DNA from: Leucoraja ocellata
Taxonomy: Eukaryota
Direction of reading: 5' to 3'
NCBI GenBank assembly: GCA_036785375.1
Contig: JAWMAR010000070.1
Location: forward strand, 7,378,001-7,442,000
Length of the DNA stretch: 64,000 bases
Shown: positions 3,257 to 55,599 of the stretch, piece after piece
Position numbering within the stretch: the first letter of the stretch is position 1
Layout: each line of letters begins with the position of its first letter
The notes under the pieces: generated by a model
Databases searched by the model: none
Told to the model about the DNA's origin: nothing
Seen by the model: only the letters and a program-made list of their open reading frames with translations
Program-made: the position numbers and the translations under genes

Positions 3257-3772
3257 TCACTGCACTGCCAGCTTGGTGTTTAGTTTACACGGCACGTTAT
3301 TAACCAGCCAAGCGCAGGAATATTTCCCAGCATCTTCCTCTTCCAGCCCCGTCAGGACCAACGAGGCGTCCCGTGTCTCAACCACGTTTGTTTTCATGAA
3401 CTTCCTGCGTCCGGGTGACCCTGGATATTGCGCACCGTTCCTGTCAGTAAACACGGCGATCGTATCTTTTCCTTTTGTCCACAGCACCACAAATTTATCG
3501 GCTGCACCGTCTTCTTTGGGCATTTTGCAGGATAGTTGAGCAGAACCACCCTTACTGGCCGTCACCTCTGTCCATCTCATCTTATCCGGAGCGAGGTTAA
3601 CAGCGCATTGTGGAGTTGGATTTTCGGTGACTTGTCGAGGAGCCCGTGCGTTCCGCCCGGCCAAGTTTGCTTCCTCTCCCCATTCTCTGGAGATCGGACC
3701 TGTTCCAGTTGCGGAGACTTGCCACACCATCTCCACAAGGACCATGAATCCTATCCATTTCTGCAGTCCCAT
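3257..3772 (-). CDS. Secreted single V-set Ig-domain protein, copy A1 (171 aa)
   Basis: ATG at 3772, 4 nt after a CACAG acceptor. Signal peptide MGLQKWIGFMVLVEMVWQVSA; propeptide ending RAPR|Q; V-set hallmarks GGSAQLSC, W, DASLVLTGL..EDAGKYSC; stop right after the G strand; AATAAA (minus) at 3185-3190. Confidence 0.88.
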   Translation of the reverse strand: MGLQKWIGFMVLVEMVWQVSATGTGPISREWGEEANLAGRNARAPRQVTENPTPQCAVNLAPDKMRWTEVTASKGGSAQLSCKMPKEDGAADKFVVLWTKGKDTIAVFTDRNGAQYPGSPGRRKFMKTNVVETRDASLVLTGLEEEDAGKYSCAWLVNNVPCKLNTKLAVQ

Positions 3773-4416
3773 GTTCCTGTGGGTGAAACAATGGGTCACC
3801 TTATTGCAACTCAGTAGGATTCATGATGACATTCCCTGAACCCGCCCAGAGTTGGGGAATCGAGAACCAGAGGACATCGGTTTAAGGCGAGGGGGGGGAA
3901 GATTTAATGGGAAATGAGGGGTGACTTTTTTACACAAAGGGTGGAGGGTGTTTGGAACGAGCTGCAAGAAGAGGTAGTTGAGGCAGGTACTATCACAATG
4001 ATTAAGAAACAGTTAGACAGGTACATTGATAGGACAGGATTAGGGGGGTAAGGGCCAAACGCAGGCAGGTGGGTCTAGTATTGATGGGACACGTTGGTGG
4101 GCGCGGGCAAGTTGGGCCGAAGGTCTCGCTGTGACTCTATGACTCCATCACTTGCCCCACCCCAGTCATTCCTCCTTCTCCCTGGTCCTGTCTAGCAGAA
4201 GGTACAGAAGCTTGAAAGCGCGCACCACCAGACTCAGGAACAGCTTCTTCCCCTCTGCTATCAGGCTTCTGAACTGGGGGAACAGTGAACAGAGACAATC
4301 CCACCCCCATCACTCACAGACACTTGAAGGATCCACAGGGTTGGTTACCAGCTCCGGAGTCTCCACACAGGGTGACGGGGTCGGTCTTGTTCTCATCTCC
4401 TGCCATCGCTCGCTCC

Positions 4417-4615
4417 TTTTATACCGACTCCCGGCTTCTCCTGCCCCTCATTGTCTGCCCTCACGTACATTCAACCAATCACTGCCTCCCACGGAGCATT
4501 GGCCGGAGTCAGCCGCGACCTCTCCACCCTCTGCCAAACGTGTCGTTGCATCAGCCGTTAACGTTTAACAAGAACAACGTCATCCCAGCTGCCAGCGGAC
4601 AACCAGGCGCCCAAC
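4417..4615 (-). promoter_or_regulatory. Promoter of A1: TATAAAA (4417-4423), ERSE (4475-4493), second CCAAT, TGATGCAA element
   Basis: Motifs read directly; block nearly identical in all nine copies and placed upstream of a GTGAGT donor and the CAG acceptor before the ATG. Confidence 0.7.
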
Positions 4616-6019
4616 ACATAGCGCCGTAAGACAACAACACCACCACTGCGCCACTGTGCTGCCCTTGCATTGGCCTCTTGCACAAGTTATAAAAGTATAA
4701 GATTCAGATAGGGTAGACAGTCAGAACCAATGTTCCATGGTGAAAATGCCAAGGACTAGAGGGCAACTCGTCAGGGTGAAAAAGAAAAAAAGGTTACGAT
4801 GTGCGGGGCATGTCTTCTTGGTGGGTGCTTGGAACACACTTGGTTGAAGCAGATACAATAGTTCGGAGGCTTTATCTGAAAAATCTCATGGATATACAGA
4901 GAATGGAGAATTATGGTTCACATGCAGGCAGAGGAGATTAGCTGAACTAGGCATCATGTTCAGCACGGATCTTGTGGGCCGAAGGGCCTGTTCCTGTGCT
5001 GTTCCATGTTCTATGTTACATCATCTTCTCAATCACATCTTGAGAAGAACGTTTTCCAGAGGTGCCCTGGTACCACCAGTGTGACATTCATTGTATCTGC
5101 TGCAGTCAATGAGTGTGTTGTGTAGACAGCCAGAGGAGAAGATGGGATTTATGTGGAGTTTCATTTTGTAATCATTATTTATTTAATGTCATAGTGTAAT
5201 AGAGTCATAGAGTGATACAGCGTGGAAACAGGCCCTTCGGCCCAACTTGCCCACACTGGCCAACATGTCCCAGCTACACTAGTCTCACCTGCCTGTGTTT
5301 GGTCCATATCCCTCCAAACCTGTCCTCTCCATGTACCTGACTCACTGTTCCTTAAACATTGGGATCTAAATGTTGCCTCACCAACACAAGATGACCTCCC
5401 AACCTCTATACTCCATACTGTGACTGATGAAGGCCAAAGTACCAAAAGCCTTTTTGACCACCGTATCTACCTGCAACTGCATCTTCAAGGAACCATGTAC
5501 CTTCTCTCATAGATCCCTCTGCTCTACAACATTCCCCAGAGCCGGACTATTCACTGTGTAGGTCCTGCACATGTTAGACTCCCCAAAACACAACACCTCA
5601 CATTACTCTGTATTAAATTCCATCAACCGTTCCTCAGCCCAACTGGCCAATATTTCAGGATGCTGCTGCAATTTTTCACAACCATCTCCACTATCTGCAA
5701 AACCGCCTACTTTTGTGTCATAGAAACATAGAAAATAGGTGCAGGAGTTGAGGCCATTCAGCCCTTCGAGCCTGCACCGCCATTCAATATGATCATGGAT
5801 GATCATCCAACTCAGTATCCTGTACCTGCCTTCTCTCCATACCCCCTGATCCCTTTAGCCACAAGGGCCACATCTAACTCCCTCTTAAATATAGTCTTTA
5901 CTTTTGTCCCTGTTTTGTTCCTGACAACATTCCCCGTTATTTTTGTTCCTGTTCTCAACATCTGCGGACTCCTGATTTTCCACATGTTGTTCCGTCCCCG
6001 TGTGGTCATGGACAATGTT

Positions 6020-6536: not shown

Positions 6537-7052
6537 TCACTTCACTGTCAGCTTGATATTTAGTCTACATTCCTTTTGGCCAGTGAACCAAGCGCAGGAA
6601 TATATCCCAATATCAGTCTCGAGTAAACCTATGATGACCAACGAGGCATCCCGTGTCCCATCCACGTTTGTATTCATGAACCTCCAGCGGCCGACCCCCC
6701 CTGGATAGGTCGCACCATTCCCTTTAGTAAACACGCCCAGTGTCCCGCTCCCTTTACTCCAGGTGATCACAAAATTCGCGGGTCCAGTCTTCCCTGTGGG
6801 TACTTTACAGGGTAGCGTAGCAGAACCACCCCTGCGTGCCGTCACATCCGTGTATTTCATCTTGTTCGCAGCTGGCTTAGCACCGCATTCTGGAGAACTT
6901 TGTTTTTTGACTTGTCGAGGCTCTCGTGCGTTCCACCCGGGCAAGTTTGCTTCCTCTCCCCATTCTCTGGAGATCGGACCTGTTCCAGTTGCGGAGACTT
7001 GCCACACCATCTCCACAAGGACCATGAATCCTATCCATCTCTGCAGTCCCAT
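6537..7052 (-). CDS. Secreted single V-set Ig-domain protein, copy A2 (171 aa)
   Basis: Same leader; REPR|Q; GGSATLPC, ITW, DASLVIIGL..TDIGIYSC, extra G-strand Cys (ECRLNIKLTVK*). Confidence 0.88.
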   Translation of the reverse strand: MGLQRWIGFMVLVEMVWQVSATGTGPISREWGEEANLPGWNAREPRQVKKQSSPECGAKPAANKMKYTDVTARRGGSATLPCKVPTGKTGPANFVITWSKGSGTLGVFTKGNGATYPGGVGRWRFMNTNVDGTRDASLVIIGLLETDIGIYSCAWFTGQKECRLNIKLTVK

Positions 7053-7199
7053 GTTCCTGTGGGTGAAACAATGGGTCACCTTATTGCAACTCAGTAGGAT
7101 TCATGATGACATTCCCTGAAGCTGCTGCCACCACACTGGGCAATGTCGCTGTGCAGCTTCTACAGCTCCCGCCTGGTTTAGTTTAAGTTGCTTTGACCT

Positions 7200-7600
7200 G
7201 TCGTGGACCAACAACATTGAAGTGGCAGCCAAGGAGGCACACCAATGCATCTACTTCCTCAGAGACAGAGGAAATACGACAAGTCTCCAATGTCTCTTAG
7301 AAACTTCTACAGATGCACCACAGAGAGCAGACTGTGGGGTTGCATCACAGCTTGGTTTGGGAACAGCTCTGAGCCCAAGATCACAAGATATTGCAGAGTT
7401 GTGGATGGAGCCCAGTCCATCACACAGACCACACTCCCCACCAGTGACTCCATCTACAACCAAAAAAATCAAAGACTTGTCCCACCCCGGTCATTCCTCC
7501 TTCTCCCTGGTCCTGTCTAGCAGACGGTACAGAAGCTTGAAAGCGCGCACCACCAGACTCAGGAACAGCTTCTTCCCCTCTGCTATCAGGCTTCTGAACT
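7200..7600 (+). mobile_element. Rex1/Babar-like non-LTR retrotransposon 3' fragment inside the A2 intron
   Basis: Translations ..AHQCIYFLR.., ..LRNFYRCTTESRLWGCITAWFGN.., ..RRYRSLKARTTRLRNSFFPSAIRLLN, typical of this LINE clade's C-terminus. Confidence 0.7.
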
Positions 7601-7741
7601 GGGGGAACAGTGAACAGAGACAATCCCACCCCCATCACTCACAGACACTTGAAGGATCCACAGGGTTGGTTACCAGCTCCGGAGTCTCCACACAGGGTGA
7701 CGGGGTCGGTCTTGTTCTCATCTCCTGCCATCGCTCGCTCC

Positions 7742-8014
7742 TTTTATACCGACTCCCGGCTTCTCCTGCCCCTCATTGTCTGCCCTCACGTACATTCAAC
7801 CAATCACTGCCTCCCACGGAGCATTGGCCGGAGTCAGCCGCGACCTCTCCACCCTCTGCCAAACGTGTCGTTGCATCAGCCGTTAACGTTTAACAAGAAC
7901 AACGTCATCCCAGCTGCCAGCGGCCAACCAGGCGCCCCACACATCCTGCTTGTGTCTCCACCACGTCTCGCTTTGGCCACCCATCGGACCAGATGTCCCA
8001 GCCACGCCACGTCA
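7742..8014 (-). promoter_or_regulatory. Promoter of A2: TATA 7742-7748, ERSE 7800-7818, TGATGCAA element, UPRE TGACGTGG (8007-8014)
   Basis: Motifs read directly; conserved with the other copies. Confidence 0.7.
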
Positions 8015-25506: not shown

Positions 25507-26019
25507 TCACATCACTGTCAGCTTGGTATTTAGTCTACATTCCTCTTTGCCAGTGAACCAAGCGCAGGAATACATCCCAACATCACTCTTCTGTAAACCC
25601 GTGATGACCAACGAGGCATCCCGTGTCCCATCCACGTTTGTTTCCTTGAACGACCAGCGGCCGGCCCCCCCTGGATAGGTCGCACCTTTCCCTTTAGTAA
25701 ACACGGCCAGTGTCCCCTTCCCTTTACTCCAGGTGACAGCAAAGTTGCTGGGTCCATCCTTCCCTGTGGGTACTATACAGGGTAGCGTAGCAGAACCACC
25801 CTTTGCCGTCACATCCGTGAATTTCATCTTGTTCGCAGCTGGCCTAGCACCGCATTCTGGAGTATCTTGTTTGTTGACTTGTCGAGGCTCCCGTGCGTTC
25901 CACCCGGGCAAGTTTGCTTCCTCTCCCCATTCTCTGGAGATCGGACCTGTTCCAGTTGCGGAGACTTGCCACACCATCTCCACAAGGACCATGAATCCTA
26001 TCCATCTCTGCAGTCCCAT
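25507..26019 (-). CDS. Secreted single V-set Ig-domain protein, copy A3 (170 aa)
   Basis: Same leader; REPR|Q; GGSATLPC, VTW, DASLVITGL..SDVGMYSC, ECRLNTKLTVM*. Confidence 0.88.
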   Translation of the reverse strand: MGLQRWIGFMVLVEMVWQVSATGTGPISREWGEEANLPGWNAREPRQVNKQDTPECGARPAANKMKFTDVTAKGGSATLPCIVPTGKDGPSNFAVTWSKGKGTLAVFTKGKGATYPGGAGRWSFKETNVDGTRDASLVITGLQKSDVGMYSCAWFTGKEECRLNTKLTVM

Positions 26020-26668
26020 GTTCCTGTGGGTGAAACAATGGGTCACCTTATTGCAACTCAGTAGGATTCATGATGACATTCCCTGAACCCGCCCAGAGTT
26101 GGGGAATCGAGAACCAGAGGACATCGGTTTAAGGCGAGGGGGGGGGGGAAAGATTTAATGGGAAACTGAGGGGTGACTTTTTTACACAAAGGGTGGAGGG
26201 TGTTTGGAACGAGCTGCCGGAAGAGGTAGTTGGGGCAGGTACTATCACAATGATTAAGAAACAGTTAGACAGGTACATTGATAGGACAGGATTAGAGGGG
26301 TAAGGGCCAAACGCAGGCAGGTGGGTCTAGTATTGATGGGACACGTTGGTGGGCGTGGGCAAGTTGGGCCGAAGGTCTCGCTGTGACTCTATGACTCCAT
26401 CACTTGTCCCACCCCGGTCATTCCTCCTTCTCCCTGGTCCTGTCTAGCAGAAGGTACAGAAGCTTGAAAGCGCGCACCACCAGACTCAGGAACAGCTTCT
26501 TCCCCTCTGCTATCAGGCTTCTGAACTGGGGGAACAGTGAACAGAGACAATCCCACCCCCATCACTCACAGACACTTGAAGGATCCACAGGGTTGGTTAC
26601 CAGCTCCGGAGTCTCCACACAGGGTGACGGGGTCGGTCTTGTTCTCATCTCCTGCCATCGCTCGCTCC

Positions 26669-26941
26669 TTTTATACCGACTCCCGGCTTCTCCTGCCCCT
26701 CATTGTCTGCCCTCACGTACATTCAACCAATCACTGCCTCCCACGGAGCATTGGCCGGAGTCAGCCGCGACCTCTCCACCCTCTGCCAAACGTGTCGTTG
26801 CATCAGCCGTTAACGTTTAACAAGAACAACGTCATCCCAGCTGCCAGCGGCCAACCAGGCGCCCCACACATCCTGCTTGTGTCTCCACCACGTCTCGCTT
26901 TGGCCACCCATCGGACCAGATGTCCCAGCCACGCCACGTCA
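26669..26941 (-). promoter_or_regulatory. Promoter of A3: TATA 26669-26675, ERSE 26727-26745, UPRE 26934-26941
   Basis: Motifs read directly. Confidence 0.7.
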
Positions 26942-28760
26942 CCACCACAGCCCTTGGCACCTGCGCTGGTTCCACAGTTTATACTCAATCTGAGCCGGCA
27001 GCTGGGATGGCGTTGGATCAATTCTTCCTTCCCAACAACCATCAGGCTGTTGAACACGACACGACACTGAGGTCAACGATGAACGTCTATGGAATGTCCA
27101 AGGTTGCACTAATGCCCCTGTCCCACTTAGGAAACCTGAACGGAAACCTCTGGAGACTTAGCGCCCCACCCAAGGTTTCCGTGCGGTTCACGGAGGTTTT
27201 TGTCTGTCTCCCTACCTGCTTCCACTACCTGCAACCTCCGGCAACCACCTGCAACCTCCGGGAACCACCTGCAACCTCCGGGAACCTTCGGGACGAAACG
27301 TTGCCTATTTCCTTCACTCCATAGATGCTGCTGCACCCGCTGAGTTTCTCCAGCATTTTTGTGTACCTTCGATTTTCCAGTATCTGCAGTTTCTTCTTCA
27401 ACATCAAATAGAACAAGTTGTCCTACAACTTTAGGCTGTGCACGCCACACGAAAGAAGAAGTTGACATGTCTGTCCCGCCATCCCGGGTATTAACCTGGT
27501 GAACCTACGTTGCACTCCCTCAATAGCAAGAATGCCCTTCCTCAAAATGACAGTGAAGTGCTGCCTCTACAGAGACACCCAATAGACCTGATAGAATGGT
27601 ATAAAATGATGAGAGGCGTAGATAGCTGAGATAACCTGAAGCAATTTCCCGAAGGCTTTGGAGACGGTGCAGAAGCAGTTCCCCAGAATGATGTCGGGAT
27701 CGGAGGTTGTTAGTTATATGGACAGGTTGGATAATCTTGGATTAGTTTCTCTAGAACTTCAGATGTTGAGCGGAGACCTGACAGAAGGTAATAAAATTCT
27801 TAAGGGGTTGGACAGGCTAGATGCAGGAACGTTGTTCCCGATGTTGGGGAAGTCCAGAACTAGGGGTCACAGTTTAAGGATAAGGGGGAAATCTTTTAGG
27901 ACCGAGATGAGAAAAACATTTTTCACACAGAGAGTGGTGAATGTGGAATTCTCTGCCACAGAAGGTATTTGAGGCCAGTTCATTGGCTATATTTAAGAGG
28001 GAGTTAGATGTGGCCCTTGTGGCTAAAGGGATCAGGGGGTATGGAGAGAAGGCAGGTACTGGATACTGAGTTTGATGATCAGCCATGATCATATTGAATG
28101 GCGGTGCAGGCTCGAAGGGCCGAATGGCCTCTACTCCTGCACCTATTGTCTATTGTCTACTGTCTATTGTCTATTGAGATAGGAAACATTTAAAGATACA
28201 AGTGGAGGTAGTTACAATAGTTCAGAGACTTTATCTAAAAAATCTCATGGTCATGCAGGGAATTGAGATTATGGATCAGGTGCAGGCAGAGGAGATTAGC
28301 TGAACTTGGCATCATGTTCAGCACGGACCATGTGGGCCGAAGGGCCTGTTCCTGTGCTGTTCCATGTTCTATGTTACATAGTCTTCTCAATCACATCTTG
28401 AGAAGAACATTTTCCAGAGGTGCCCTGGTACCACCAGTGTGACATTCATTGTATCTGCTGCAGTCAATGAGTGTGTTGTGTAGACAGCCAGAGGAGAAGA
28501 TGGGATTTATGTGGAGTTTCATTTTGTAATCATTATTTATTTAATGTCATAGTGTAATAGAGTCATATAGTGATACAGTGTGGAAACAGGCCCTTCGGCC
28601 CAACTTGCCCACACTGGCCAACATGTCCCAGCTACACTAGTCCCACCTGCCTGTGTTTGGTCCATATCCTTCTAAATCTGACCTATACCTGTTCCTGTTT
28701 AACTGTTTCTTAAACGTCGGGATAGTTTCTGCCTCAACAGCGATGAGTTGACCAGAACGA

Positions 28761-28986
28761 GACGTGGTGGAGACACAAGCAGGATGTGTGGGGCGCCTGG
28801 TTGGCCGCTGGCAGCTGGGATGACGTTGTTCTTGTTAAACGTTAACGGCTGATGCAACGACACGTTTGGCAGAGGGTGGAGAGGTCGCGGCTGACTCCGG
28901 CCAATGCTCCGTGGGAGGCAGTGATTGGTTGAATGTACGTGAGGGCAGACAATGAGGGGCAGGAGAAGCCGGGAGTCGGTATAAAA
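28761..28986 (+). promoter_or_regulatory. Promoter of B1: GACGTGG 28761, TGATGCAAC 28850, CCAAT 28901, inverted ERSE 28910-28928, TATAAAA 28980-28986
   Basis: Motifs read directly; conserved in nine copies. Confidence 0.72.
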
Positions 28987-29085
28987 GGAGCGAGCGATGG
29001 CAGGAGATGAGAACAAGACCGACCCCGTCACCCTGTGTGGAGACTCCGGAGCTGGTAACCAACCCTGTGGATCCTTCAAGTGTCT

Positions 29086-29628
29086 GTGAGTGATGGGGGT
29101 GGGATTGTCTCTGTTCACTGTTCCCCCAGTTCAGAAGCCTGATAGCAGAGGGGAAGAAGCTGTTCCTGAGTCTGGTGGTGCGCGCTTTCAAGCTTCTGTA
29201 CCGTCTGCTAGACAGGACCAGGAAGAAGGAGGAATGACTGGGGTGGGACAAGTGGTGGAGTCATAGAGTCACAGCGAGACCTTCGGCTCAACTTGCCCGC
29301 GCCCACCAACGTGTCCCCATCAATACTAGACCCACCTGCCTGCGTTTGGCCCTTACCCCCCTAATCCTGTCCTATCAATGTACCTGTCTAACTGTTTCTT
29401 AATCATTGTGACAGTACCTGCCTCAACTACCTCTTCCGGCAGCTCGTTCCAAACACCCTCCACCCTTTGTGTAAAAAAGTCACCCCTCAGTTTCCCATGA
29501 AATCTTTCCCCCCCTCGCCTTAAACCGATGTCCTCTGGTTCTCGATTCCCCAACTCTGGGCGGGTTCAGGGAATGTCATCATGAATCCTACTGAGTTGCA
29601 ATAAGGTGACCCATTGTTTCACCCACAG
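29086..29628 (+). other. Predicted 5'UTR intron of B1 (GTGAGT...ttgtttcacccacAG), containing antisense Rex/Babar and CR1 fragments; homologous intron in all copies
   Basis: Consensus donor ~100 nt after the TATA box; pyrimidine-rich acceptor 4 nt before the ATG. Alternative donor CTG|GTAACC at 29055. Confidence 0.65.
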
Positions 29629-29632
29629 GAAC

Positions 29633-30172
29633 ATGGGACTGCAGAGATGGATAGGATTCATGGTCCTTGTGGAGATGGTGTGGCAAGTCTCCGTAACTGG
29701 AACAGGTCCGATCTCCAGAGAATGGGGAGAGGAAGCAAACTTGGCCGGGCGGAACGCACGGGCGTATTTCAAAGTCACCAATAAACCGCTTCCAAGATGC
29801 ACGAACGAGTCAGATTCTGATGCCATCAGTCATCACCCATCACCGATTAACAAGAAGGTGCTCGTTGCATCTCTGGGCGGTTCTGTTACGTTGCCATGTA
29901 ATATATCCATCCTTAAAAATCATTACAGGTTTGTTGAATGGATAAAAGATGGTGTTGAAATTGCCCATTTCCATGAGAGAGCGTATGCGCATTATACGGG
30001 ATCTGATGTTCACTGGAAGTTCGTTGATCACGACGTCTATGTGACTCAGGACGCCACGTTGCTCCTGACAGGTGTAAAAGAGGAAGATAAAGGGACGTAT
30101 TCCTGTGTTTGGTCCGTGTATAGAGATAGACCGTTTTGTGAATTATTGATGCAGCTGGTGATCTCTCACTGA
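29633..30172 (+). CDS. Secreted single V-set Ig-domain protein, copy B1 (179 aa)
   Basis: Leader; RNAR-AYFK junction; LGGSVTLPC, VEW, DATLLLTGVKEEDKGTYSC, extra Cys PFCELL; stop after the G strand. Confidence 0.9.
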   Translation: MGLQRWIGFMVLVEMVWQVSVTGTGPISREWGEEANLAGRNARAYFKVTNKPLPRCTNESDSDAISHHPSPINKKVLVASLGGSVTLPCNISILKNHYRFVEWIKDGVEIAHFHERAYAHYTGSDVHWKFVDHDVYVTQDATLLLTGVKEEDKGTYSCVWSVYRDRPFCELLMQLVISH

Positions 30173-35588: not shown

Positions 35589-35898
35589 CTATTTTCCATG
35601 TTTCTATGGGAGCCTCGATCGCCTCGATGCAGCAGTTTGATTTTAAGCCGCTTGGGCGCTGAAAGGCCCCGCGAACGGGACGATTCTGCCCATAGAAAGC
35701 GTCTGATAAAGTCCGGAACACAAAACATGGGCGGGGGGGGAATCGTCCCCCACCTCCCAAAGCATAGGGGGACATGCCCCCTGTCCCCCCCCCCCAGGAT
35801 TCCTGCCCATGGCGGTCACGATGTCTCCTTCACCGCCGCAGTCTCGACGCCTCTATGATGGCCGCGAAAAACTCAGATCTCTGGGTTGACCAGAACGA

Positions 35899-36124
35899 GA
35901 CGTGGTGGAGACACAAGCAGGATGTGTGGGGCGCCTGGTTGGCCGCTGGCAGCTGGGATGACGTTGTTCTTGTTAAACGTTAACGGCTGATGCAACGACA
36001 CGTTTGGCAGAGGGTGGAGAGGTCGCGGCTGACTCCGGCCAATGCTCCGTGGGAGGCAGTGATTGGTTGAATGTACGTGAGGGCAGACAATGAGGGGCAG
36101 GAGAAGCCGGGAGTCGGTATAAAA
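35899..36124 (+). promoter_or_regulatory. Promoter of B2 (ERSE 36048-36066, TATA 36118-36124)
   Basis: Same motif block as B1. Confidence 0.7.
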
Positions 36125-36771
36125 GGAGCGAGCGATGGCAGGAGATGAGAACAAGACCGACCCCGTCACCCTGTGTGGAGACTCCGGAGCTGGTAACCAA
36201 CCCTGTGGATCCTTCAAGTGTCTGTGAGTGATGGGGGTGGGATTGTCTCTGTTCACTGTTCCCCCAGTTCAGAAGCCTGATAGCAGAGGGGAAGAAGCTG
36301 TTCCTGAGTCTGGTGGTGCGCGCTTTCAAGCTTCTGTACCTTCTGCTAGACAGGACCAGGGAGAAGGAGGAATGACAGGGGTGGGACAAGTGATGGAGTC
36401 ATAGAGTCACAGCGAGACCTTCGGCCCAACTTGCCCGCGCCCACCAACGTGTCCCCATCAATACTAGACCCACCTGCCTGCGTTTGGCCCTTACCCCTCT
36501 AATCCTGTCCTATCAATGTACCTGTCTAACTGTTTCTTAATCATTGTGATAGTACCTGCCTCAACTACCTCTTCCGGCAGCTCGTTCCAAACACCCTCCA
36601 CCCTTTGTGTAAAAAAAGTCACCCCTCAGTTTCCCATGAAATCTTTCCCCCCCTCACCTTAAACCGATGTCCTCTGGTTCTCGATTCCCCAACTCTGGGC
36701 GGGTTCAGGGAATGTCATCATGAATCCTACTGAGTTGCAATAAGGTGACCCATTGTTTCACCCACAGGAAC

Positions 36772-37308
36772 ATGGGGCTGCAGAGATGGATAGGATTCAT
36801 GGTCCTTGTGGAGATGGTGTGGCAAGTCTCCGTAACTGGAACAGGTCCGATCTCCAGCGAATGGGGAGAGGAAGCAAACTTGGCCGGGTGGAATGCACGG
36901 GCCCCTCGGCAAGTCACCGATGAACAGCTTCCAAGATGCACGGACAAGTCAGATTCTGATGCCATCAGTCATCACCTATCAACGATTAACAAGAAGGTGC
37001 TCGTTGCATCTCTGGGTGGTTCTGTTACGTTGCCATGTAATGTATCCAACGTTGACAATAGTCCCACGGTTACATGGAAAAAAGATGGTGTTGAAATTGC
37101 CTATTTCCATAGTAGAGTGCATGAGCGTTATAAGGGATCTGATGTTCACTGGAAGTTCGTGGAACGAAACGTCCTTTGGAAACAGGACGCCACGTTGCTC
37201 CTGACAGGTGTAAAAGAGGAAGATACAGGGACGTATTCCTGTGTTTGGATCAAGTATCCTAAGAAACCGTTTTGTGAATTATTGATGCAGCTGATGATCT
37301 CTCACTGA
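36772..37308 (+). CDS. Secreted single V-set Ig-domain protein, copy B2 (178 aa)
   Basis: Leader; RAPR|Q; CNVSNVDNSPTVTW; EDTGTYSCVWIKYPKKPFC. Confidence 0.9.
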   Translation: MGLQRWIGFMVLVEMVWQVSVTGTGPISSEWGEEANLAGWNARAPRQVTDEQLPRCTDKSDSDAISHHLSTINKKVLVASLGGSVTLPCNVSNVDNSPTVTWKKDGVEIAYFHSRVHERYKGSDVHWKFVERNVLWKQDATLLLTGVKEEDTGTYSCVWIKYPKKPFCELLMQLMISH

Positions 37309-40300: not shown

Positions 40301-42405
40301 ATCGCCCGACGGGGGTTTCAACATTGGTATTGATGTGGATAGAGAACTGGCTGGCAGACAGAAAGCAAAGAGTAGGAGTAAACGGGTCCTTTTCAGAATG
40401 GCAGGCAGTGACTAGTGGGGTACTGCAAGACTCAGTGCTGGGACCCCAGCTATTTACGATATATATTAATGATCTGGATGAGGGAGTTGAATGCAACATC
40501 TCCAAGTTTGCAGATGACACGAAATGGGGGGCAGTGTTAGCTGTGAGGAGGATGCTAGGAGGCTGCAAGGTGACTTGGATATGTTGGGTGAGTGGGCAAA
40601 TGCATGGAAGATGCAGTATAATGTGGATAAATGTGAGGTTATCCATTTTGGTGTAAAAAACAGGAAAGTAGATTATTATCTGAATGGTGGCCGATTAGGA
40701 AAAGGGGAGATGCAACGAGACCTGGGTGTCATGGTACACCAGTCATTAAAAGTGGGCATGCAGGTGCAGCAGGCAGTGAAGAAAGAGAATGGTATGTTAG
40801 CATTCATAGCAAAAGGATTTGAGTATAAGAGCAGGGAGGTTCTACTGCAGTTGTACAGGGTCTTGGTGAGACCACACCTGGAGTATTGCGTACAGTTTTG
40901 GTCTCCTAATCTGAGGAAGGACATTCTTGCCATAGAGGGAGTACAGAGAAGGTTCACCAGACTGATTCCTGGGATGTCAGGACTTTATGGCATACTGAGT
41001 TGGATGATCAGTATAATCATATTAAATGGCAGTGCAGGCTCGAAGGGCCGAATGGCCTACTCCTGCACCTATTTTCTACGTTTCTATGGGAGCCTCGATC
41101 GCCTCGATGCAGCAGTTTGATTTTAAGCCGCTCGGGCGCTGAAAGGCCCCGCGAACGGGACGATTCTGCCCATAGAAAGCGTCTGATAAAGTCCGGAACA
41201 CAAAACATGGGCGGGGGGGGGAATCGTCCCCACCTCCCAAAGCATAGGAGACGTGCCCCCTGTCCCCCCCCCCAGGATTTCTGCCCATGGCGGTGACGAT
41301 ATCTCCTTCACCGCCGCAGTCTCGACGCCTCTTTGATGGGCGCGAAAAACCCCATGTGGGGCGTAGAAGGCCGGGTCGGATAAAGCGGAAAGTTACTTTC
41401 AATGAGGTCCTCCCCCTGACATCACTGGAAGCTGCTGGTCAACCACTCCCCCTTTGTGACATCACTCGAAGCGGGGTGAAGGTTTGCCGTTTAATAAGTT
41501 GGTTTTCACTATTTTTAAAACGCTATAACTTGTGAACTACAGCATGTAATGTGAAGTGGAGCAGTTTATTTTGTCAAAGGGGTTAATGTGATTAATAATG
41601 TGCGGAGGAGGGGAGGAGGAGAGGGGAGAGAAGGAGGAGGGTAAAGACGAGGGGGAGGGAGTGTAAGAGACTCGCCTGCGCAGTTGTGGGGTATGGGTGA
41701 GTGGTGGAATATTACGTTGGGGGGACGGGTACATCGCAAAGGAATCTCATTTAGATTTCTTGGGAGGAGGCTTTTCATTGTGGGGGGTGGAATTGCTGAG
41801 AGGTTTCATTTACTCCTTATTTATAAAATAATTACGATTGTGGGGAGGGGTGGGTTGGGGGCGGGGGCTCCCCGTTTCATTGTGGGGGGGTGGAGTAAGA
41901 GAGAGGTTTCATTTCCAGAATTTTCCTTGCTAGGGGATGGGGTGAGTATTGTGGGGTATGGGTGAGTGGTGGAATATTACGTTGGGGGAACGGGGCCCAA
42001 CGGGTCCCACTTGGTCTAGTTATCATTATTTATTTAATGTTTCACGTTTACACCAATCTCTCCACCACCACGAACAAGCAGCACAAGACGCAACAAGACA
42101 GACACCATTTTATGCAGATGCCGAGAAGTGTGATCAGCTCTGGCTGAACAACTAATCTTGTGTGTGGATTCGATAAGCAGAAGATTTAATGTCATAGTGT
42201 TATACAGTCATAGAGTGATACAGCATGGAAACAGGCCCTTTGGCCCAACTTGCCCACATTGGACAACATGTCCCAGCTACACTAGTCCCACCTGTCCACG
42301 TTTGGTCCATATCCCTCCAAATCTGACCTATCCCTGTTCCTGTCTAGCAGTTTCTTAAACGTCGGGATAGTTTCTGCCTCAACTGCGATGGGTTGACCAG
42401 AACGA

Positions 42406-42631
42406 GACGTGGTGGAGACACAAGCAGGATGTGTGGGGCGCCTGGTTGGCCGCTGGCAGCTGGGATGACGTTGTTCTTGTTAAACGTTAACGGCTGATGC
42501 AACGACACGTTTGGCAGAGGGTGGAGAGGTCGCGGCTGACTCCGGCCAATGCTCCGTGGGAGGCAGTGATTGGTTGAATGTACGTGAGGGCAGACAATGA
42601 GGGGCAGGAGAAGCCGGGAGTCGGTATAAAA
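42406..42631 (+). promoter_or_regulatory. Promoter of B3 (ERSE 42555-42573, TATA 42625-42631)
   Basis: Same motif block. Confidence 0.7.
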
Positions 42632-43281
42632 GGAGCGAGCGATGGCAGGAGATGAGAACAAGACCGACCCCGTCACCCTGTGTGGAGACTCCGGAGCTGG
42701 TAACCAACCCTGTGGATCCTTCAAGTGTCTGTGAGTGATGGGGGTGGGATTGTCTCTGTTCGCTGTTCCCCCAGTTCAGAAGCCTGATAGCAGAGGGGAA
42801 GAAGCTGTTCCTGAGTCTGGTGGTGCGCGCTTTCAAGCTTCTGTACCTTCTGCTAGAGAGGACCAGGGAGAAGGAGGAATGACCGTGGGTGGGACAAGTG
42901 ATGGAGTCATAGAGTCACAGCGAGACCTTCGGCCCAACTTGCCCGCGCCCACCAACGTGTCCCCATCAATACTAGACCCACCTGCCTGCGTTTGGCCCTT
43001 ACCCCTCTAATCCTGTCCTATCAATGTACCTGTCTAACTGTTTCTTAATCATTGTGATAGTACCTGCCTCAACTACCTCTTCCGGCAGCTCGTTCCAAAC
43101 ACCCTCCACCCTTTGTGTAAAAAAGTCACCCCTCAGTTTCCCATGAAATCTTTCCCCCCCCCCTCGCCTTAAACCGATGTCCTCTGGTTCTCGATTCCCC
43201 AACTCTGGGCGGGTTCAGGGAATGTCATCATGAATCCTACTGAGTTGCAATAAGGTGACCCATTGTTTCACCCACAGGAAC

Positions 43282-43818
43282 ATGGGACTGCAGAGATGGA
43301 TAGGATTCATGGTCCTTGTGGAGATGGTGTGGCAAGTCTCCGCAACTGGAACAGGTCCGATCTCCAGAGAATGGGGAGAGGAAGCAAACTTGGCCGGGCG
43401 GAACGCACGGGCTCCTCGACAAGTCACCAATGAAACGCTTCCAAGATGCACGAACGAGTCAGATTCTGATGCCATCAGTCATCACCTATCAACGATTAAC
43501 AAGAAGGTGCTCGTTGCATCTCTGGGTGGTTCTGTTACTTTGCCATGTAATGTATCCAACGTTGACAATAGTCCCGAGGTTACATGGAATAAAGATGGTG
43601 TTGAAATTGCCTATTTCCATAGTAGAGTGCATGAGCGTTATACAGGATCTGATGTTCACTGGAAGTTCGTGCAACGAAACGTCCTTTGGGAACAGGACGC
43701 CACGTTGCTCCTGACAGGTGTAAAAGAGGAAGATAAAGGGACGTATTCCTGTGTTTGGATCAAGTATCGTCAGAAACCGGTTTGTGAATTATTGATGCAG
43801 CTGATGATCTCTCACTGA
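43282..43818 (+). CDS. Secreted single V-set Ig-domain protein, copy B3 (178 aa)
   Basis: Leader; RAPR|Q; CNVSNVDNSPEVTW; EDKGTYSCVWIKYRQKPVC. Confidence 0.9.
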   Translation: MGLQRWIGFMVLVEMVWQVSATGTGPISREWGEEANLAGRNARAPRQVTNETLPRCTNESDSDAISHHLSTINKKVLVASLGGSVTLPCNVSNVDNSPEVTWNKDGVEIAYFHSRVHERYTGSDVHWKFVQRNVLWEQDATLLLTGVKEEDKGTYSCVWIKYRQKPVCELLMQLMISH

Positions 43819-46800: not shown

Positions 46801-48865
46801 TATTGATGTGGATAGAGAACTGGCTGGCAGACAGAAAGCAAAGAGTAGGAGTAAACGGGTCCTTTTCAGAATGGCAGGCAGTGACTAGTGGGGTACTGCA
46901 AGACTCAGTGCTGGGACCCCAGCTATTTACGATATATATTAATGATCTGGATGAGGGAGTTGAATGCAACATCTCCAAGTTTGCAGATGACACGAAATGG
47001 GGGGCAGTGTTAGCTGTGAGGAGGATGCTAGGAGGCTGCAAGGTGACTTGGATAGGCTGGGTGAGTAGGCAAATGCATGGAAGATGCAGTATAATGTGGA
47101 TAAATGTGAAGTTATCCATTTTGGTGTAAAAAACAGGAAAGTAGGTTATTATCTGAACGGTGGCCGATTAGGAAAAGGGGAGATGCAGCGAGACCTGGGT
47201 GTCATGGTACACCGGTCATTAAAAGTGGGCATGCAGGTGCAGCAGGCAGTGAAGAAAGAGAATGGTATGTTAACATTCATAGCAAAAGTAGCAGGGAGGT
47301 TCTACTGCAGTTGTACAGGGTCTTGGTGAGACCACACCTGGAGTATTGCGTACAGTTTTGGTCTGATAATCTGAGGAAAGACATTCTTGCCATAGAGAGA
47401 GTACAGAGAAAGTTCACCAGACTGATTCCTGGGATGTCAGGACTTTATGGCATACTGAGTTGGATGATCAGTATAATCATATTAAATGGCAGTGCAGGCT
47501 CGAAGGGCCGAATGGCCTACTCCTTCACCTATTTTCTATGTTTCTATGGGAGCCTCGATCGCCTCGATGCAGCAGTTTGATTTTAAGCCGCTCGGGCGCT
47601 GAAAGGCCCCGCGAACGGGACGATTCTGCCCATAGAAAGCGTCTGATAAAGTCCGGAACACAAAACATGGGCGGGGGGGGAATCGTCCCCCACCTCCCAA
47701 AGCATAGGGAGACGTGCCCCATGTCCCCCCCCCAGGATTTCCGCCCATGGCGGTCACGATATCTCCTTCACCGCTGCAGTCTCGACGCCTCTTTGATGGC
47801 CGCGAAAAACCCCATGTGGGGCGTAGAAGGCCGGATCGGATAAAGCGGAAAGTTAATTTCAATGAGGTCCTCCCCCTGACATCACTGGAAGCTGCTGGTC
47901 GACCACTCCCCCTTTGTGACATCACTCGAAGCGGGGTGAAGGTTTGCCGTTTAATAAGTTGGTTTTCACTATTTTTAAAACGCTATAACTTGTGAACTAC
48001 AGCATGTAATGTGAAGTGGAGCAGTTTATTTTGTCAAAGGGGTTAATGTGATTAATAATGTGCAGAGGAGGGGAGGAGGAGAGGGGAGAGAAGGAGGAGG
48101 GTGTAGACGAGGGGGAGGGAGTGTAAGAGACTCGCCTGCGCAGTTGTGGGGTATGGGTGAGTGGTGGAATATTACGTTGGGGGGACGGGTACATCGCAAA
48201 GGAATCTCATTTAGATTTCTTGGGAGGAGGCTTTTCATTGTGGGGGGTGGAATTGCTGAGAGGTTTCATTTACTCCTTATTTATAAAATAATTACGATTG
48301 TGGGGAGGGGTGGGTTGGGGGCGGGGGCTCCCCGTTTCATTGTGGGGGGGTGGAGTAAGAGAGAGGTTTCATTTCCAGAATTTTCCTTGCTAGGGGATGG
48401 GGTGAGTATTGTGGGGTATGGGTGAGTGGTGGAATATTACGTTGGGGGAACGGGACCCAACGGGTCCCACTTGGTCTAGTTATCATTATTTATTTAATGT
48501 TTCACGTTTACACCAATCTCTCCACCACCACGAACAAGCAGCACAAGACGCGACAAGACAGACACCATTTTATGCAGATGCCGAGAAGTGTGATCAGCTC
48601 TGGCTGAACAACTAATCTTGTGTGTGGATTCGATAAGCAGAAGATTTAATGTCATAGTGTTATACAGTCATAGAGTGATACAGCATGGAAACAGGCCCTT
48701 TGGCCCAACTTGCCCACATTGGACAACATGTCCCAGCTACACTAGTCCCACCTGTCCACGTTTGGTCCATATCCCTCCAAATCTGACCTATCCCTGTTCC
48801 TGTCTAGCTGTTTCTTAAACGTCGGGATAGTTTCTGCCTCAACTGCGATGGGTTGACCAGAACGA

Positions 48866-49091
48866 GACGTGGTGGAGACACAAGCAGGATGTGTGGGGCG
48901 CCTGGTTGGCCGCTGGCAGCTGGGATGACGTTGTTCTTGTTAAACGTTAACGGCTGATGCAACGACATGTTTGGCAGAAGGTGGAGAGGTCGCGGCTGAC
49001 TCCGGCCAATGCTCCGTGGGAGGCAGTGATTGGTTGAATGTACGTGAGGGCAGACAATGAGGGGCAGGAGAAGCCGGGAGTCGGTATAAAA
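48866..49091 (+). promoter_or_regulatory. Promoter of B4 (ERSE 49015-49033, TATA 49085-49091)
   Basis: Same motif block. Confidence 0.7.
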
Positions 49092-49740
49092 GGAGCGAGC
49101 GATGGCAGGAGATGAGAACAAGACCGACCCCGTCACCCTGTGTGGAGACTCCGGAGCTGGTAACCAACCCTGTGGATCCTTCAAGTGTCTGTGAGTGATG
49201 GGGGTGGGATTGTCTCTGTTCACTGTTCCCCCAGTTCAGAAGCCTGATAGCAGAGGGGAAGAAGCTGTTCCTGAGTCTGGTGGTGCGCGCTTTCAAGCTT
49301 CTGTACCTTCTGCTAGAGAGGACCAGGGAGAAGGAGGAATGACCGTGGGTGGGACAAGTGATGGAGTCATAGAGTCACAGCGAGACCTTTGGCCCAACTT
49401 GCCCGCGCCCACCAACGTGTCCCCATCAATACTAGACCCACCTGCCTGCGTTTGGCCCTTACCCCTCTAATCCTGTCCTATCAATGTACCTGTCTAACTG
49501 TTTCTTAATCATTGTGATAGTACCTGCCTCAACTACCTCTTCCGGCAGCTCGTTCCAAACACCCTCCACCCTTTGTGTAAAAAAGTCACCCCTCAGTTTT
49601 CCATGAAATCTTTCCCCCCCCCTCGCCTTAAACCGATGTCCTCTGGTTCTCGATTCCCCAACTCTGGGCGGGTTCAGGGAATGTCATCATGAATCCTACT
49701 GAGTTGCAATAAGGTGACCCATTGTTTCACCCACAGGAAC

Positions 49741-50280
49741 ATGGGACTGCAGAGATGGATAGGATTCATGGTCCTTGTGGAGATGGTGTGGCAAGTCTCC
49801 GCAACTGGAACAGGTCCGATCTCCAGAGAATGGGGAGAGGAAGCAAACTTGGCCGGGCGGAACACACGGGCGTATTTCAAAGTCACCAATGAACCGCTTC
49901 CAAGATGCACGAACGAGTCAGATTCTGATGCCATCAGTCATCACCCATCACCGATTAACAAGAAGGTGCTCGTTGCATCTCTGGGTGGTTCTGTTACGTT
50001 GCCATGTAATATATCCATCCTTAAAAATCATTACAGGGTTGTTCAATGGAAAAAAGATGGTGTTCAAATTGCCAGTTTCCATGAGAGAGCGTATGCGCGT
50101 TATACGGGGTCTGATGTTCACTGGAAGTTCGTTGATCACGACGTCTATATGGCTCAGGACGCCACGTTGCTCCTGACAGGTGTAAAAGAGGAAGATACAG
50201 GGACGTATTCCTGTGTTTGGTTCCATTATAGAGATAGACCGTTTTGTGAATTATTGATGCAGCTGATGATCTCTCACTGA
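49741..50280 (+). CDS. Secreted single V-set Ig-domain protein, copy B4 (179 aa, B1-type)
   Basis: Leader; RNTR-AYFK; CNISILKNHYRVVQW; EDTGTYSCVWFHYRDRPFC. Confidence 0.9.
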   Translation: MGLQRWIGFMVLVEMVWQVSATGTGPISREWGEEANLAGRNTRAYFKVTNEPLPRCTNESDSDAISHHPSPINKKVLVASLGGSVTLPCNISILKNHYRVVQWKKDGVQIASFHERAYARYTGSDVHWKFVDHDVYMAQDATLLLTGVKEEDTGTYSCVWFHYRDRPFCELLMQLMISH

Positions 50281-53200: not shown

Positions 53201-55373
53201 CGACTCCGAACTCCAGCAACAGCAGCTTCGTCCGCCCGGAATCGTGAGGCTTGAATCGGCCCGTTCGCGGGGCCTTTCATCGCCCGACGGGGGTTTCAAC
53301 ATTGGTATTGATGTGGATAGAGAACTGGCTGGCAGACAGAAAGCAAAGAGTAGGAGTAAACGGGTCCTTTTCAGAATGGCAGGCAGTGACTAGTGGGGTA
53401 CTGCAAGACTCAGTGCTGGGACCCCAGCTATTTACGATATATATTAATGATCTGGATGAATGCAACATCTCCAAGTTTGCAGATGACACGAAATGGGGGG
53501 CAGTGTTAGCTGTGAGGAGGATGCTAGGAGGCTGCAAGGTGACTTGGATATGTTGGGTGAGTGGGCAAATGCATGGAAGATGCAGTATAATGTGGATAAA
53601 TGTGAGGTTATCCATTTTGGTGTAAAAAACAGGAAAGTAGATTATTATCTGAATGGTGGCCGATTAGGAAAAGGGGAGATGCAACGAGACCTGGGTGTCA
53701 TGGTACACCAGTCATTAAAAGTGGGCATGCAGGTGCAGCAGGCAGTGAAGAAAGAGAATGGTATGTTAACATTCATAGCAAAAGGATTTGAGTATAAGAG
53801 CAGGGAGGTTCTACTACAGTTGTACAGGGTCTTGGTGAGACCACACCTGGAGTATTGCGTACAGTTTTGGTCTCCTAATCTGAGGAAGGACATTATTGCC
53901 ATAGAGGGAGTACAGAGAAAGTTCACCAGACTGATTCCTGGGATGTCAGGACTTTATGGCATACTGAGTTGGATGATCAGTATAATCATATTAAATGGCA
54001 GTGCAGGCTCGAAGGGCCGAATGGCCTACTCCTGCACCTATTTTCTATGTTTCTATGGGAGCCTCGATCGCCTCGATGCAGCAGTTTGATTTTAAGCCGC
54101 TCGGGCGCTGAAAGGCCCCGCGAACGGGACGATTCTGCCCATAGAAAGCGTCTGATAAAGTCCGGAACACAAAACATGGGCGGGGGGGGAATCGTCCCCC
54201 ACCTCCCAAAGCATAGGGAGACATGCCCCCTGTCCCCCCCCAGGATTTCCGCCCATGGCGGTCACGATATCTCCTTCACCGCCGCAGTCTCGACGCCTCT
54301 TTGATGGGCGCGAAAAACCCCATGTGGGGCGTAGAAGGCCGGGTCGGATAAAGCGGAAAGTTAATTTCAATGAGGTCCTCCCCCTGACGTCACTGGAAGC
54401 TGCTGGTCGACCACTCCCCCTTTGTGACATCACTCGAAGGGGGGTGAAGGTTTGCCGTTTAATAAGTTGGTTTTCACTATTTTTAAAACGCTATAACTTG
54501 TGAACTACAGCATGTAATGTGAAGTGGAGCAGTTTATTTTGTCAAAGGGGTTAATGTGATTAATAATGTGCGGAGGAGGGGAGGAGGAGAGGGGAGAGAA
54601 GGAGGAGGGTGTAGACGAGGGGGAGGGAGTGTAAGAGACTCGCCTGCGCAGTTGTGGGGTATGGGTGAGTGGTGGAATATTACGTTGGGGGGACGGGTAC
54701 ATCGCAAAGGAATCTCATTTAGATTTCTTGGGAGGAGGCTTTTCATTGTGGGGGGTGGAATTGCTGAGAGGTTTCATTTACTCCTTATTTATAAAATAAT
54801 TACGATTGTGGGGAGGGGTGGGTTGGGGGCGGGGGCTCCCCGTTTCATTGTGGGGGGGTGGAGTAAGAGAGAGGTTTCATTTCCAGAATTTTCCTTGCTA
54901 GGGGATGGGGTGAGTATTGTGGGGTATGGGTGAGTGGTGGAATATTACGTTGGGGGAACGGGACCCAACGGGTCCCACTTGGTCTAGTTATCATTATTTA
55001 TTTAATGTTTCACGTTTACACCAATCTCTCCACCACCACGAACAAGCAGCACAAGACGCGACAAGACAGACACCATTGTATGCAGATGCCGAGAAGTGTG
55101 ATCAGCTCTGGCTGAACAACTAATCTTGTGTGTGGATTCGATAAGCAGAAGATTTAATGTCATAGTGTTATACAGTCATAGAGTGATACAGCATGGAAAC
55201 AGGCCCTTTGGCCCAACTTGCCCACATTGGACAACATGTCCCAGCTACACTAGTCCCACCTGTCCACGTTTGGTCCATATCCCTCCAAATCTGACCTATC
55301 CCTGTTCCTGTCTAGCAGTTTCTTAAACGTCGGGATAGTTTCTGCCTCAACTGCGATGGGTTGACCAGAACGA

Positions 55374-55599
55374 GACGTGGTGGAGACACAAGCAGGATGT
55401 GTGGGGCGCCTGGTTGGCCGCTGGCAGCTGGGATGACGTTGTTCTTGTTAAACGTTAACGGCTGATGCAACGACACGTTTGGCAGAGGGTGGAGAGGTCG
55501 CGGCTGACTCCGGCCAATGCTCCGTGGGAGGCAGTGATTGGTTGAATGTACGTGAGGGCAGACAATGAGGGGCAGGAGAAGCCGGGAGTCGGTATAAAA
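55374..55599 (+). promoter_or_regulatory. Promoter of B5 (ERSE 55523-55541, TATA 55593-55599)
   Basis: Same motif block. Confidence 0.7.

Follow-up and report, generated by a model that had tools for sequence, protein, structure and literature searches.

The window, by which we mean the whole 64,000-nucleotide stretch of skate DNA analysed here, contains a cluster of nine two-exon genes, arranged as an A array on the minus strand and a B array on the plus strand (Table 1). Their products are batoid prepro-proteins that lack annotation; each has a single Ig V domain and four cysteines but no membrane anchor. No description of the gene family was found. Each of them (9/9) is fronted by a cassette of ~1 kb that comprises the promoter, exon 1, a repeat-derived intron and the codons for the signal and pro-peptide. 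In B1, the promoter and exon 1 have a GC content of 58% (promoter CpG o/e 0.96). The in-frame ATG of exon 1, which is used by public gene models, adds 31 codons. An Rfam scan of positions 23000-32000 returned 0 matches. Two RNA runs of unspecified tissue yielded no exon reads (X9) and about one read pair (X13); a run search with A1 exon 2 listed no RNA run, a result that carries no weight on expression.

Table 1. Genes and other features of the skate cluster, in positions of the window
Feature	Position	Strand	Remarks
Gene A1	3257..4619	-	Cassette ~3626-4619; 5' edge ~26 nt shorter than other copies
Gene A2	6537..7970	-	Cassette homogenised at both ends
A2-specific intron block	7121..7479	-	No homology to the remaining eight introns
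A3 exon 2, encoding the signal peptide, a pro-segment (R-x-x-R) and one Ig V-set domain up to the stop	25507..26023	-	V-set E 5.7e-10
A3 ORF	26019-25507	-	170 aa; mature part basic, pI ~9.4
A3 arm (left) of inverted repeat, from the promoter through exon 1 and the intron to the codons for signal and pro-peptide	25890..26897	-
A3 intron, mostly interspersed-repeat fragments	26024..26569	-	GT-AG, 546 nt
A3 TATA box and exon 1	26570..26675	-	TATA 26675-26669; upstream in-frame ATG at 26658
Upstream flank specific to A2/A3	26898..27112	-	96.7% to 7971-8185; no relation to DNA upstream of B genes
A-array spacer block, here in front of B1	27287..28654	+	92% to 22650-24119; right part recurs at 4843-5365
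Chimeric repeat fragment upstream of B1	28539..28740	.	Matches the A-array spacer copy as far as 28654 and, from 28677 on, the copy upstream of B3-B6
B1 arm (right) of inverted repeat, same cassette content	28758..29762	+
B1 TATA box and exon 1	28980..29085	+	TATA 28980-28986; upstream in-frame ATG at 28997
B1 intron	29086..29628	+	GT-AG, 543 nt
B1 exon 2, encoding the signal peptide, a pro-segment and one Ig V-set domain up to the stop	29629..30172	+
B1 ORF	29633-30172	+	179 aa; Cys 56, 89, 158, 169; mature pI ~6.3
Gene B2 with cassette	35896..37308	+	Own upstream flank
Gene B3 with cassette	42403..43818	+
Gene B4 with cassette	48863..50280	+	B1-like V domain
Gene B5 with cassette	55371..56787	+
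Gene B6 with cassette	60754..62167	+

The Pfam V-set family (PF07686) scored above its cut-off in all four proteins tested, and the domain has the other marks of a V-set: cysteines in the B and F strands, a tryptophan in the C strand, and a V fold according to both the structural model and Foldseek. The reading frames stop after the V domain with no membrane anchor, and the public models and a spliced Logan product (P0010) end at the same place. The proteins are probably secreted. Residues 7-17 form a hydrophobic core (mean 2.06 over 11 residues, only 1.2-1.3 over 19). This core and the R-x-x-R motif of the pro-segment, which like the four cysteines is kept in 20/20 aligned proteins, are suggestive of a signal peptide and convertase processing, judging by sequence. 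Cleavage would occur at R-x-x-R, the A and B genes could be co-expressed, and an extra disulfide may link Cys56 to Cys169. A predicted A3/B1 heterodimer scored 0.01 in a run without alignments, which has no weight either way. Among the best 150 matches of a profile search against 1.84 billion representatives, only P0001 and P0043 matched the whole profile; the others matched part of it and were mostly multi-domain Ig proteins. A search with P0043 returned only P0043, and the ESM Atlas gave generic V-set clusters only. A rearranging Ig or TCR V segment was considered and rejected: the stop follows the G strand, and no recombination signal was found behind V on either strand at up to 1+2 mismatches to the motif.

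A3 and B1 lie head to head. As an earlier note on this DNA had observed, their cassettes form a near-perfect inverted repeat, whose arms are 1.86 kb apart and align over 1009 columns with 13 mismatches and 5 gap columns (BLAST, 97.8% over 1026 columns). The content it had described, a promoter, exon 1, a repeat-filled intron and the leader, was recovered in full, with a TATA box in each arm; the inner edges that it gave (26897 and 28758) are exact, and at the A3 arm the outer edge moves from 25910 to 25890. The first difference between the arms falls at 29203, so that the innermost 445 bases are identical. Outside the cassette, the A and B genes are barely alignable, also as first described: the mature regions of A3 and B1 differ at 47.6% of aligned bases, their V domains share 39/123 residues (32%) with a dS of 0.83, and the A-B 3' flanks, at 53-56% difference, are unalignable.

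The emphasis that the earlier note placed on the head-to-head inversion is not supported. A3 and B1 differ at 13/973 cassette sites, which ties for the most distant of the seven pairs that include A3, whereas A3 differs from B2 to B6 at only 7-11 sites (7 for B3). Conversion from arm to arm of the A3/B1 palindrome could have bridged the cassette between the two arrays, considering the proximity of the arms, their identical inner bases and three minor intron variants that B1 has in common with A1 or A2. However, the inverted partners are not the most alike, and a 343-nt promoter-exon stretch is identical in 7/9 copies, not in A3 and B1 alone; this explanation is very unlikely. The inversion was in all likelihood a separate rearrangement and not the cause of the cassette likeness. 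The junction of the two arrays lies within or at the end of the chimeric repeat fragment, and the head-to-head orientation is that of the assembly.

Collapsed or mis-joined repeats could also have placed one cassette before different V exons, or flipped an array, and the window does contain N gaps as well as a tandem duplicate of 5.7 kb that is near-perfect. However, the cassette copies carry private differences (6-16 per pair), and public Leucoraja models that differ in sequence carry one and the same leader ahead of four V types. In P0010, exon 1 is spliced to an A-type V, which demonstrates the splice for an A-type paralogue, and a contig from a related species (organism B) agrees with the leader over 113 nt, after which it no longer resembles B1. 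Because of these models, the spliced product and the contig, we regard mis-assembly of the cassette-to-V joins as unlikely; that an assembly artefact explains the whole pattern is extremely improbable.

Conversion was assessed by site-compatibility counts and trees. A2 was excluded from the cassette counts and DNA trees owing to its foreign intron block. The cassette has 37 variable sites, 29 of which are singletons; none of the eight informative sites splits A from B, and 11 of the 28 pairs of informative sites are incompatible. Separate trees, as the earlier note had proposed, disagree: the cassette tree is a star with 0/5 inner branches supported, and A and B separate at 100/100 in the mature-region tree. 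A grouping of A1 with A3 is not rejected by the cassette tree (23/0). Some informative cassette sites are CpG and could recur. For GC-biased substitution in the converted tract, only 31 sites were usable.

The intron serves as a marker. In contigs of a relative, word depth is ~2e4 to 1.5e6 in bins 29091-29576, compared with ~170-380 over the promoter and exon 1, and we therefore call the intron repeat-derived. Pfam returned no family for its repeat reading frame, and its LINE/SINE family names are presumptive. Intron difference is 0.9-2.0% (12 A1/A3-B pairs). An A-B synonymous divergence in V as low as this would have counted against conversion according to the earlier note; instead, mature-region dS is 0.63-1.00 in 18/18 A-B pairs, 30-100 times the intron divergence, which supports recurrent gene conversion. 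Neutral sites are thus alike in one region while adjacent synonymous sites are far apart, as in concerted evolution.

Among close paralogues, dN exceeds dS: A2 and A3 have a mature-region dN of 0.134 and a dS of 0.040, and the pN-pS intervals lie above zero in 6/8 comparisons of B1 or B4 with other B genes (pairs that are not independent). Purifying selection by itself could hold the cassette, with positive selection by itself accounting for the V domains; the dN excess fits this, and so does the scarcity of differences between species in the promoter and exon 1 (2/354 vs 8/249 in the spacer). The latter contrast indicates that purifying selection contributes at the promoter and exon 1. As a full explanation, however, selection alone is highly improbable and largely refuted by the synonymous divergence; moreover, the intron is repeat-derived, A2 does without its middle, and the leader is not conserved with respect to Narcine, where the homologue matches 13-16/43 prepro residues, no better than V (26-35%).

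The cassette edges are ragged. The 5' edges lie at -197, -223 and -234 from the TATA box, the 3' edges at nt 131-147 of the ORF, and the tract common to the copies ends at the R-x-x-R motif. Both flanks are subfamily-specific, the 3' flanks being alike only within B and within A2/A3. A tract bracketed by lineage-specific DNA, together with the disagreement between region-specific trees, points to conversion. That both flanks are subfamily-specific disfavours a single-crossover form of the cassette shuffling that the earlier note had offered as an alternative. In A2, a foreign intron middle lies between homogenised ends; the reading frame of the repeat fragment that the copies share runs on into this block, which is probably the older state. 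One recent replacement of the cassette through unequal exchange and tandem duplication, followed by little conversion, would also yield a star-shaped tree dominated by singletons, and the B array is indeed a young tandem expansion (periods of 5.4-7.1 kb, 3' flanks ~99% identical). However, the subfamily-specific flanks would require two exchanges per gene, and the A2 intron middle escaped and the edges are ragged. We consider such a single episode unlikely, also in view of organism B, in which a species-specific variant in a collapsed contig argues for homogenisation after the species split.

In organism B, a single 354-nt promoter contig has a depth of 169, compared with 15-43 for the V-side contigs (contig depth does not equal copy number), and it carries a substitution throughout its depth at 28959, where 9/9 window copies have G. 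The corresponding contrast in organism C is weak (13.8 vs 10 on the spacer). The Leucoraja protein P0005 has a prepro region identical (43/43) to that of paralogues with only 29-32% V identity. Its nearest V relative, Rhinoraja P0003 (V identity 59%, support 93/95), matches it at 39/43 prepro residues; only one Rhinoraja gene was found, and the four changes in its leader may be specific to that lineage. For this one gene and the contig data, paralogues within a species are thus closer than orthologues between species.

We consider it probable that this skate cluster comprises nine two-exon secreted single-V genes whose cassettes were homogenised by conversion and whose mature domains were shaped by diversifying selection. 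We infer conversion as the process from the observed gene anatomy, mosaic pattern, high dS and dN above dS. Cluster-wide non-allelic gene conversion would keep the kilobase from promoter to pro-peptide alike in any orientation. On the upstream side it would halt where the homology is broken by differing repeat insertions, and on the downstream side at the processing motif; past that motif, diversifying selection may have driven the mature domains so far apart that they can no longer convert. Retention of the cassette to keep expression and processing uniform is plausible. Alternatively, the likeness may be a by-product, the cassette being the last stretch similar enough to convert, and this fits as well. 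A more elaborate reading, which taken as a whole seems rather doubtful, is that of a constant cassette and a variable effector: the CpG-rich promoter would start conversion in a co-expressed, non-rearranging batoid germline system of secreted single-V recognition proteins parallel to antibodies, with regulatory and processing changes sweeping all copies while the mature domains diversify and exchange small patches. As for function, soluble recognition proteins that bind microbes or microbial products at a presumed body surface would be the most likely role, with about an even chance; a reproductive or signalling secretion is somewhat less probable, and a defensive secretion is improbable.

The pattern itself is known from insect saliva genes. 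According to the report on Hessian fly SSSGP-1, these are clustered tandem and inverted genes for small secreted proteins, with a conserved promoter, 5' UTR, signal-peptide region and intron and a diverged mature region (dN/dS above 1), for which short-tract conversion was proposed (PMC2955719). SSSGP-1 is, on that description, the closest precedent, likewise combining a conserved promoter, 5' exon, intron and signal with a diversified mature region and dN > dS. It differs in being insect salivary and lacking an Ig fold, and in that its 3' UTRs are conserved too, and its conservation scores are 80-98 (PMC2955719). The skate cassettes are ~99% identical, precede a pro-segment and an Ig V domain, and contain neutral repeat fragments as markers, and the 3' flanks are not shared between A and B. 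In the human red/green opsins, introns are homogenised within species and the selected exon is the divergence peak (PMC3924837). The same profile is seen in B1 vs B3 and A2 vs A3, although the opsins involve two genes and few sites, compared with nine or more genes and near-saturated A-B synonymous divergence in the skate.

Within the Ig superfamily, two reports describe SIGLEC11/SIGLEC16, head to head ~9 kb apart and alike over ~3 kb (PMC5701461), and conversion affecting the N-domains of primate CEACAMs (PMC8860441). These are membrane receptors that have 5' conversion in common with the skate genes, but there conversion copies the ligand-binding V-set domain, whereas in the skate it would halt just before V. 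VCBPs have two V domains and a chitin-binding domain. Carp SITRs are secreted with two Ig domains and skate MDIRs are activating or inhibitory receptors (PMC3031540). All three are germline multigene Ig families like the skate genes, compared here by description only. The skate genes differ in having a single V domain (and no second Ig domain), an exon that encodes leader and V together, and a pro-segment; their ORFs end after V, unlike the anchored and tailed receptors of the MDIR/CD300 or nectin type. MDIR sequences were absent among the named matches of our sequence searches. The best matches were the D1 domains of nectin, CD155 and CD226 (Foldseek E 9e-9 to 1e-7, 18-24% identity; phmmer E 6e-5), and the Narcine homologue is automatically named nectin-1-like; this likeness is generic to V-sets, and the skate genes lack further Ig domains and a membrane anchor. 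The findings point to an unannotated, fast-evolving secreted Ig V family in skates and rays that is a candidate for an immune or reproductive recognition system of cartilaginous fish not recognised before. The cluster would be a clean vertebrate case of conversion halting at a protein processing site, the opposite of what Siglec and CEACAM show. With its neutral repeat fragments as markers, it offers a test that the SSSGP genes did not settle: whether selection for shared expression or mere leftover homology keeps such tracts.

The near-perfect inverted repeat that the earlier note described between A3 and B1, the head-to-head members of the two Ig V subfamilies, is real. When the window is compared with itself, the core arms (table below) differ by 13 mismatches and 5 gap columns in 1009 columns, and their inner 445 bases are without any difference. 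Both arms contain a TATA box, a short exon 1, a GT-AG intron of 543-546 nt and exon 2 codons 1-43. The V domains and 3' flanks are, as also claimed, barely alignable: 47.6% of bases differ between the mature regions (39/123 residues identical), and no alignment of the A3 and B1 3' flanks could be obtained. The intron is mostly high-copy repeat, reaching a word depth of ~2e4 to 1.5e6 in contigs of a relative; the promoter and exon 1 have a depth of ~170-380 in the same contigs.

Features of the window and the basis of their identification
Feature	Position	Strand	Basis
A3 arm	25890-26897	minus	self-comparison of window
B1 arm	28758-29762	plus	self-comparison of window
Stretch from exon-1 ATG (eight equivalents elsewhere)	28997-29085		
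Decayed LTR-retroelement-like region, between A2 and A3	8989-21024		
LINE reverse-transcriptase fragment	32409-33407		Pfam RVT_1, E 3e-27
N gap	33-288		
N gap	741-1072		

As assembled, the window contains nine intact genes (A1-A3, minus strand; B1-B6, plus strand) and is otherwise free of copies. All nine have the same exon 1 sequence, seven share an invariant 343-nt promoter-exon stretch, and pairs among eight genes (A2 excluded) differ at 6-16 sites over 973 columns of the cassette, the shared 5' part of ~1 kb. The head-to-head pair is not the special case it was taken for, since A3 and B1 differ at 13 of these columns and A3 and B2 to B6 at only 7-11. The observation is real and larger than first noted: a cluster-wide, probably converted cassette from promoter to pro-peptide. 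The A3-B1 spacer is a copy of the block separating A genes (92% to 22650-24119), and the repeat fragment before B1 agrees with the A-block copy as far as 28654 and, from 28677 on, with the copy at B3-B6. The junction of the A and B arrays lies inside this fragment or at its end; it may stem from repeat-to-repeat exchange or from an earlier break that conversion altered afterwards.

Recurrent conversion, as first proposed, survives a comparison of synonymous divergence. In each of the 18 A-B pairs the mature dS lies within 0.63-1.00, with no bootstrap bound of pS under 0.32. The prepro codons (signal plus pro-segment) show 0-3 differences among ~30 synonymous sites and the introns 0.9-2.0% difference, and these values largely refute constraint in place of conversion. 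The cassette tree is star-shaped, none of its branches having support, and the mature tree supports the A/B split at 100/100; none of 8 informative cassette sites separates A from B, and 11/28 site pairs are incompatible. Four kinds of upstream DNA, unrelated to one another, occur: one at A1, one at A2 and A3, one at B2 and one at the remaining B genes. The DNA downstream likewise goes with the subfamily. Because both flanks are lineage-specific, a single crossover per gene could not yield the cassette pattern.

The 5' edges of the cassette are ragged (-197, -223 and -234 relative to the TATA box), and its 3' edges lie at reading-frame nt 131-147, at or slightly beyond the R-x-x-R codons. A2 carries a 359-nt intron block that is unique in the window and flanked by ends ~99% shared; it is probably the older state, because the shared repeat fragment has a reading frame that carries on through it. 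A3 has the common intron, though it is the sister of A2 by V domain and both flanks. The pro-segment variants (ORF nt 112-139 of each gene; also P0001, P0008 and P0010) are shuffled without regard to the type of V domain: A1 has the B-like form, the Leucoraja relative P0005 has the A2/A3 form, and B2 and another relative, P0010, have mixed forms. B genes of L. erinacea combine pieces of the B1 type and the B2/B3 type of the window.

In other species, the P0005 prepro matches at 43/43 residues paralogues with V identity of 29-32%, versus 39/43 for its nearest V relative in Rhinoraja (V 59%, support 93/95), where a single gene is known. Against the Narcine homologue, the prepro is no better kept than the V domain. 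Organism B, a relative, has a single 354-nt contig over 28805-29158 at depth 169 and V-side contigs at 15-43; contig depth is not copy number, and the contrast is weak in organism C. The contig of organism B has T at 28959 throughout its depth and organism C has G at 28858, both absent from all nine window copies. One sweep of the cassette through the copies also fits, 29 of 37 variable cassette sites being singletons, and counted against conversion is a cassette tree compatible with an A group. Alongside conversion, the 2/354 differences between species in the promoter and exon 1, versus 8/249 in the spacer, argue that selection contributes too at promoter and exon 1.

In the mature domain, A2 and A3 differ by dN 0.134 versus dS 0.040, with flanks at 99-100%, and B1/B4 differ from other B genes by dN ~0.18-0.20 and dS ~0.07-0.10 (interval above zero in 6/8 pairs, which are non-independent). 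The two B allotypes are 14-15% apart in the mature part and ~1% in the flanks, and B3, B5 and B6 proteins are near-identical. In comparisons of A with B, dN roughly matches dS or falls below it. In array order the allotypes alternate (B1, B4 versus B2, B3, B5, B6).

Exon 2 codes for a hydrophobic N-terminus, then a pro-segment and a single Ig V-set domain that ends in a stop, with Pfam V-set above cut-off in all four proteins tested. The AlphaFold prediction for B1 has a mean pLDDT of 66, with most of the V domain at 80-92. It resembles the D1 domains of nectin, CD155 and CAR in a generic way (identity 15-26%); an extra Cys56-Cys169 bond would be compatible with its higher-confidence island at residues 53-57, which has a beta-bridge. 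Both searches returned the same seven relatives: one in Rhinoraja longicauda and six, all uncharacterised, in Leucoraja erinacea. Two more Leucoraja proteins and one Logan product came from a cluster look-up, and a profile search yielded a homologue in an electric ray, Narcine bancroftii, that is distant but full-length; family members among the matches listed are from batoids only. Four cysteines and the pro-segment R-x-x-R are kept in 20/20 aligned proteins. A types are basic (pI 7.8-9.9) and B types near neutral; N-glycosylation motifs number none in basic A-type mature proteins and 1-3 in B types. No recombination signals were found in the window. Two further L. erinacea V types (P0002 and P0005, with P0003 from Rhinoraja) are missing from this window, so the cluster probably continues beyond it.

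Spliced transcripts exist, since in P0010, which derives from a Logan contig of 900 nt, exon 1 and an A-type exon 2 are connected in the predicted manner. In two RNA runs of unspecified tissue, of each of which 5-6% was read, the exons drew no reads in X9 and roughly one read pair in X13. The in-frame ATG of exon 1, where public models start, sits 17 nt past the TATA start. It would add 31 residues with three cysteines, the same in 9/9 copies, and could yield a longer or membrane-held isoform. The second ATG is presumably the conserved start, because the N-terminal extension of the Narcine model is apparently unrelated and the Rhinoraja model has none.

In the LTR-like region a 670-nt terminal repeat occurs three times, along with two internal copies, the 5683-nt units differing at only 2 bases, which indicates either very recent duplication or an assembly duplicate. 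A 65-codon stretch within it weakly matches an integrase core (E 7e-5, below cut-off). Fragments related to the LINE recur in later B tandem units and spacers.

We propose that diversifying selection drove the mature domains of old duplicates apart and that repeat insertions destroyed upstream homology, which would leave the intervening kilobase as the sole stretch alike in every copy, where conversion continues. Conversions entering the mature domain would be purged by selection, or would now fail through lost homology; common regulation and processing would be a likely consequence of the shared cassette. Given the predicted-secreted V fold and the arms-race signature, we infer that a role in surface-defence recognition is most likely.

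The family is undescribed in the accessible literature, including by locus and accession numbers, although expression tables of skate genome papers may list the loci; the accessible text of a fish-immunity review (PMC6795676) does not mention it. The domain composition of SITR and MDIR is different (PMC3031540), SIGLEC11/16 are head-to-head genes with 5' conversion (PMC5701461) and CEACAM genes shuffle N-domains (PMC8860441); in both of the latter, unlike in the skate genes, conversion copies the binding domain. Rodent Esp genes have short conversions close to the beginning of the secreted part (PMC3477143), and PMC5519329 is relevant to the idea of a promoter hotspot. The skate cluster has the pattern of the SSSGP genes of the Hessian fly (PMC2955719) and of the divergence peak in opsins (PMC3924837). 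The kind of process, conversion, is already known; what is new is a batoid single-V, putatively secreted family, the Ig setting, and a conversion stop at the processing site.
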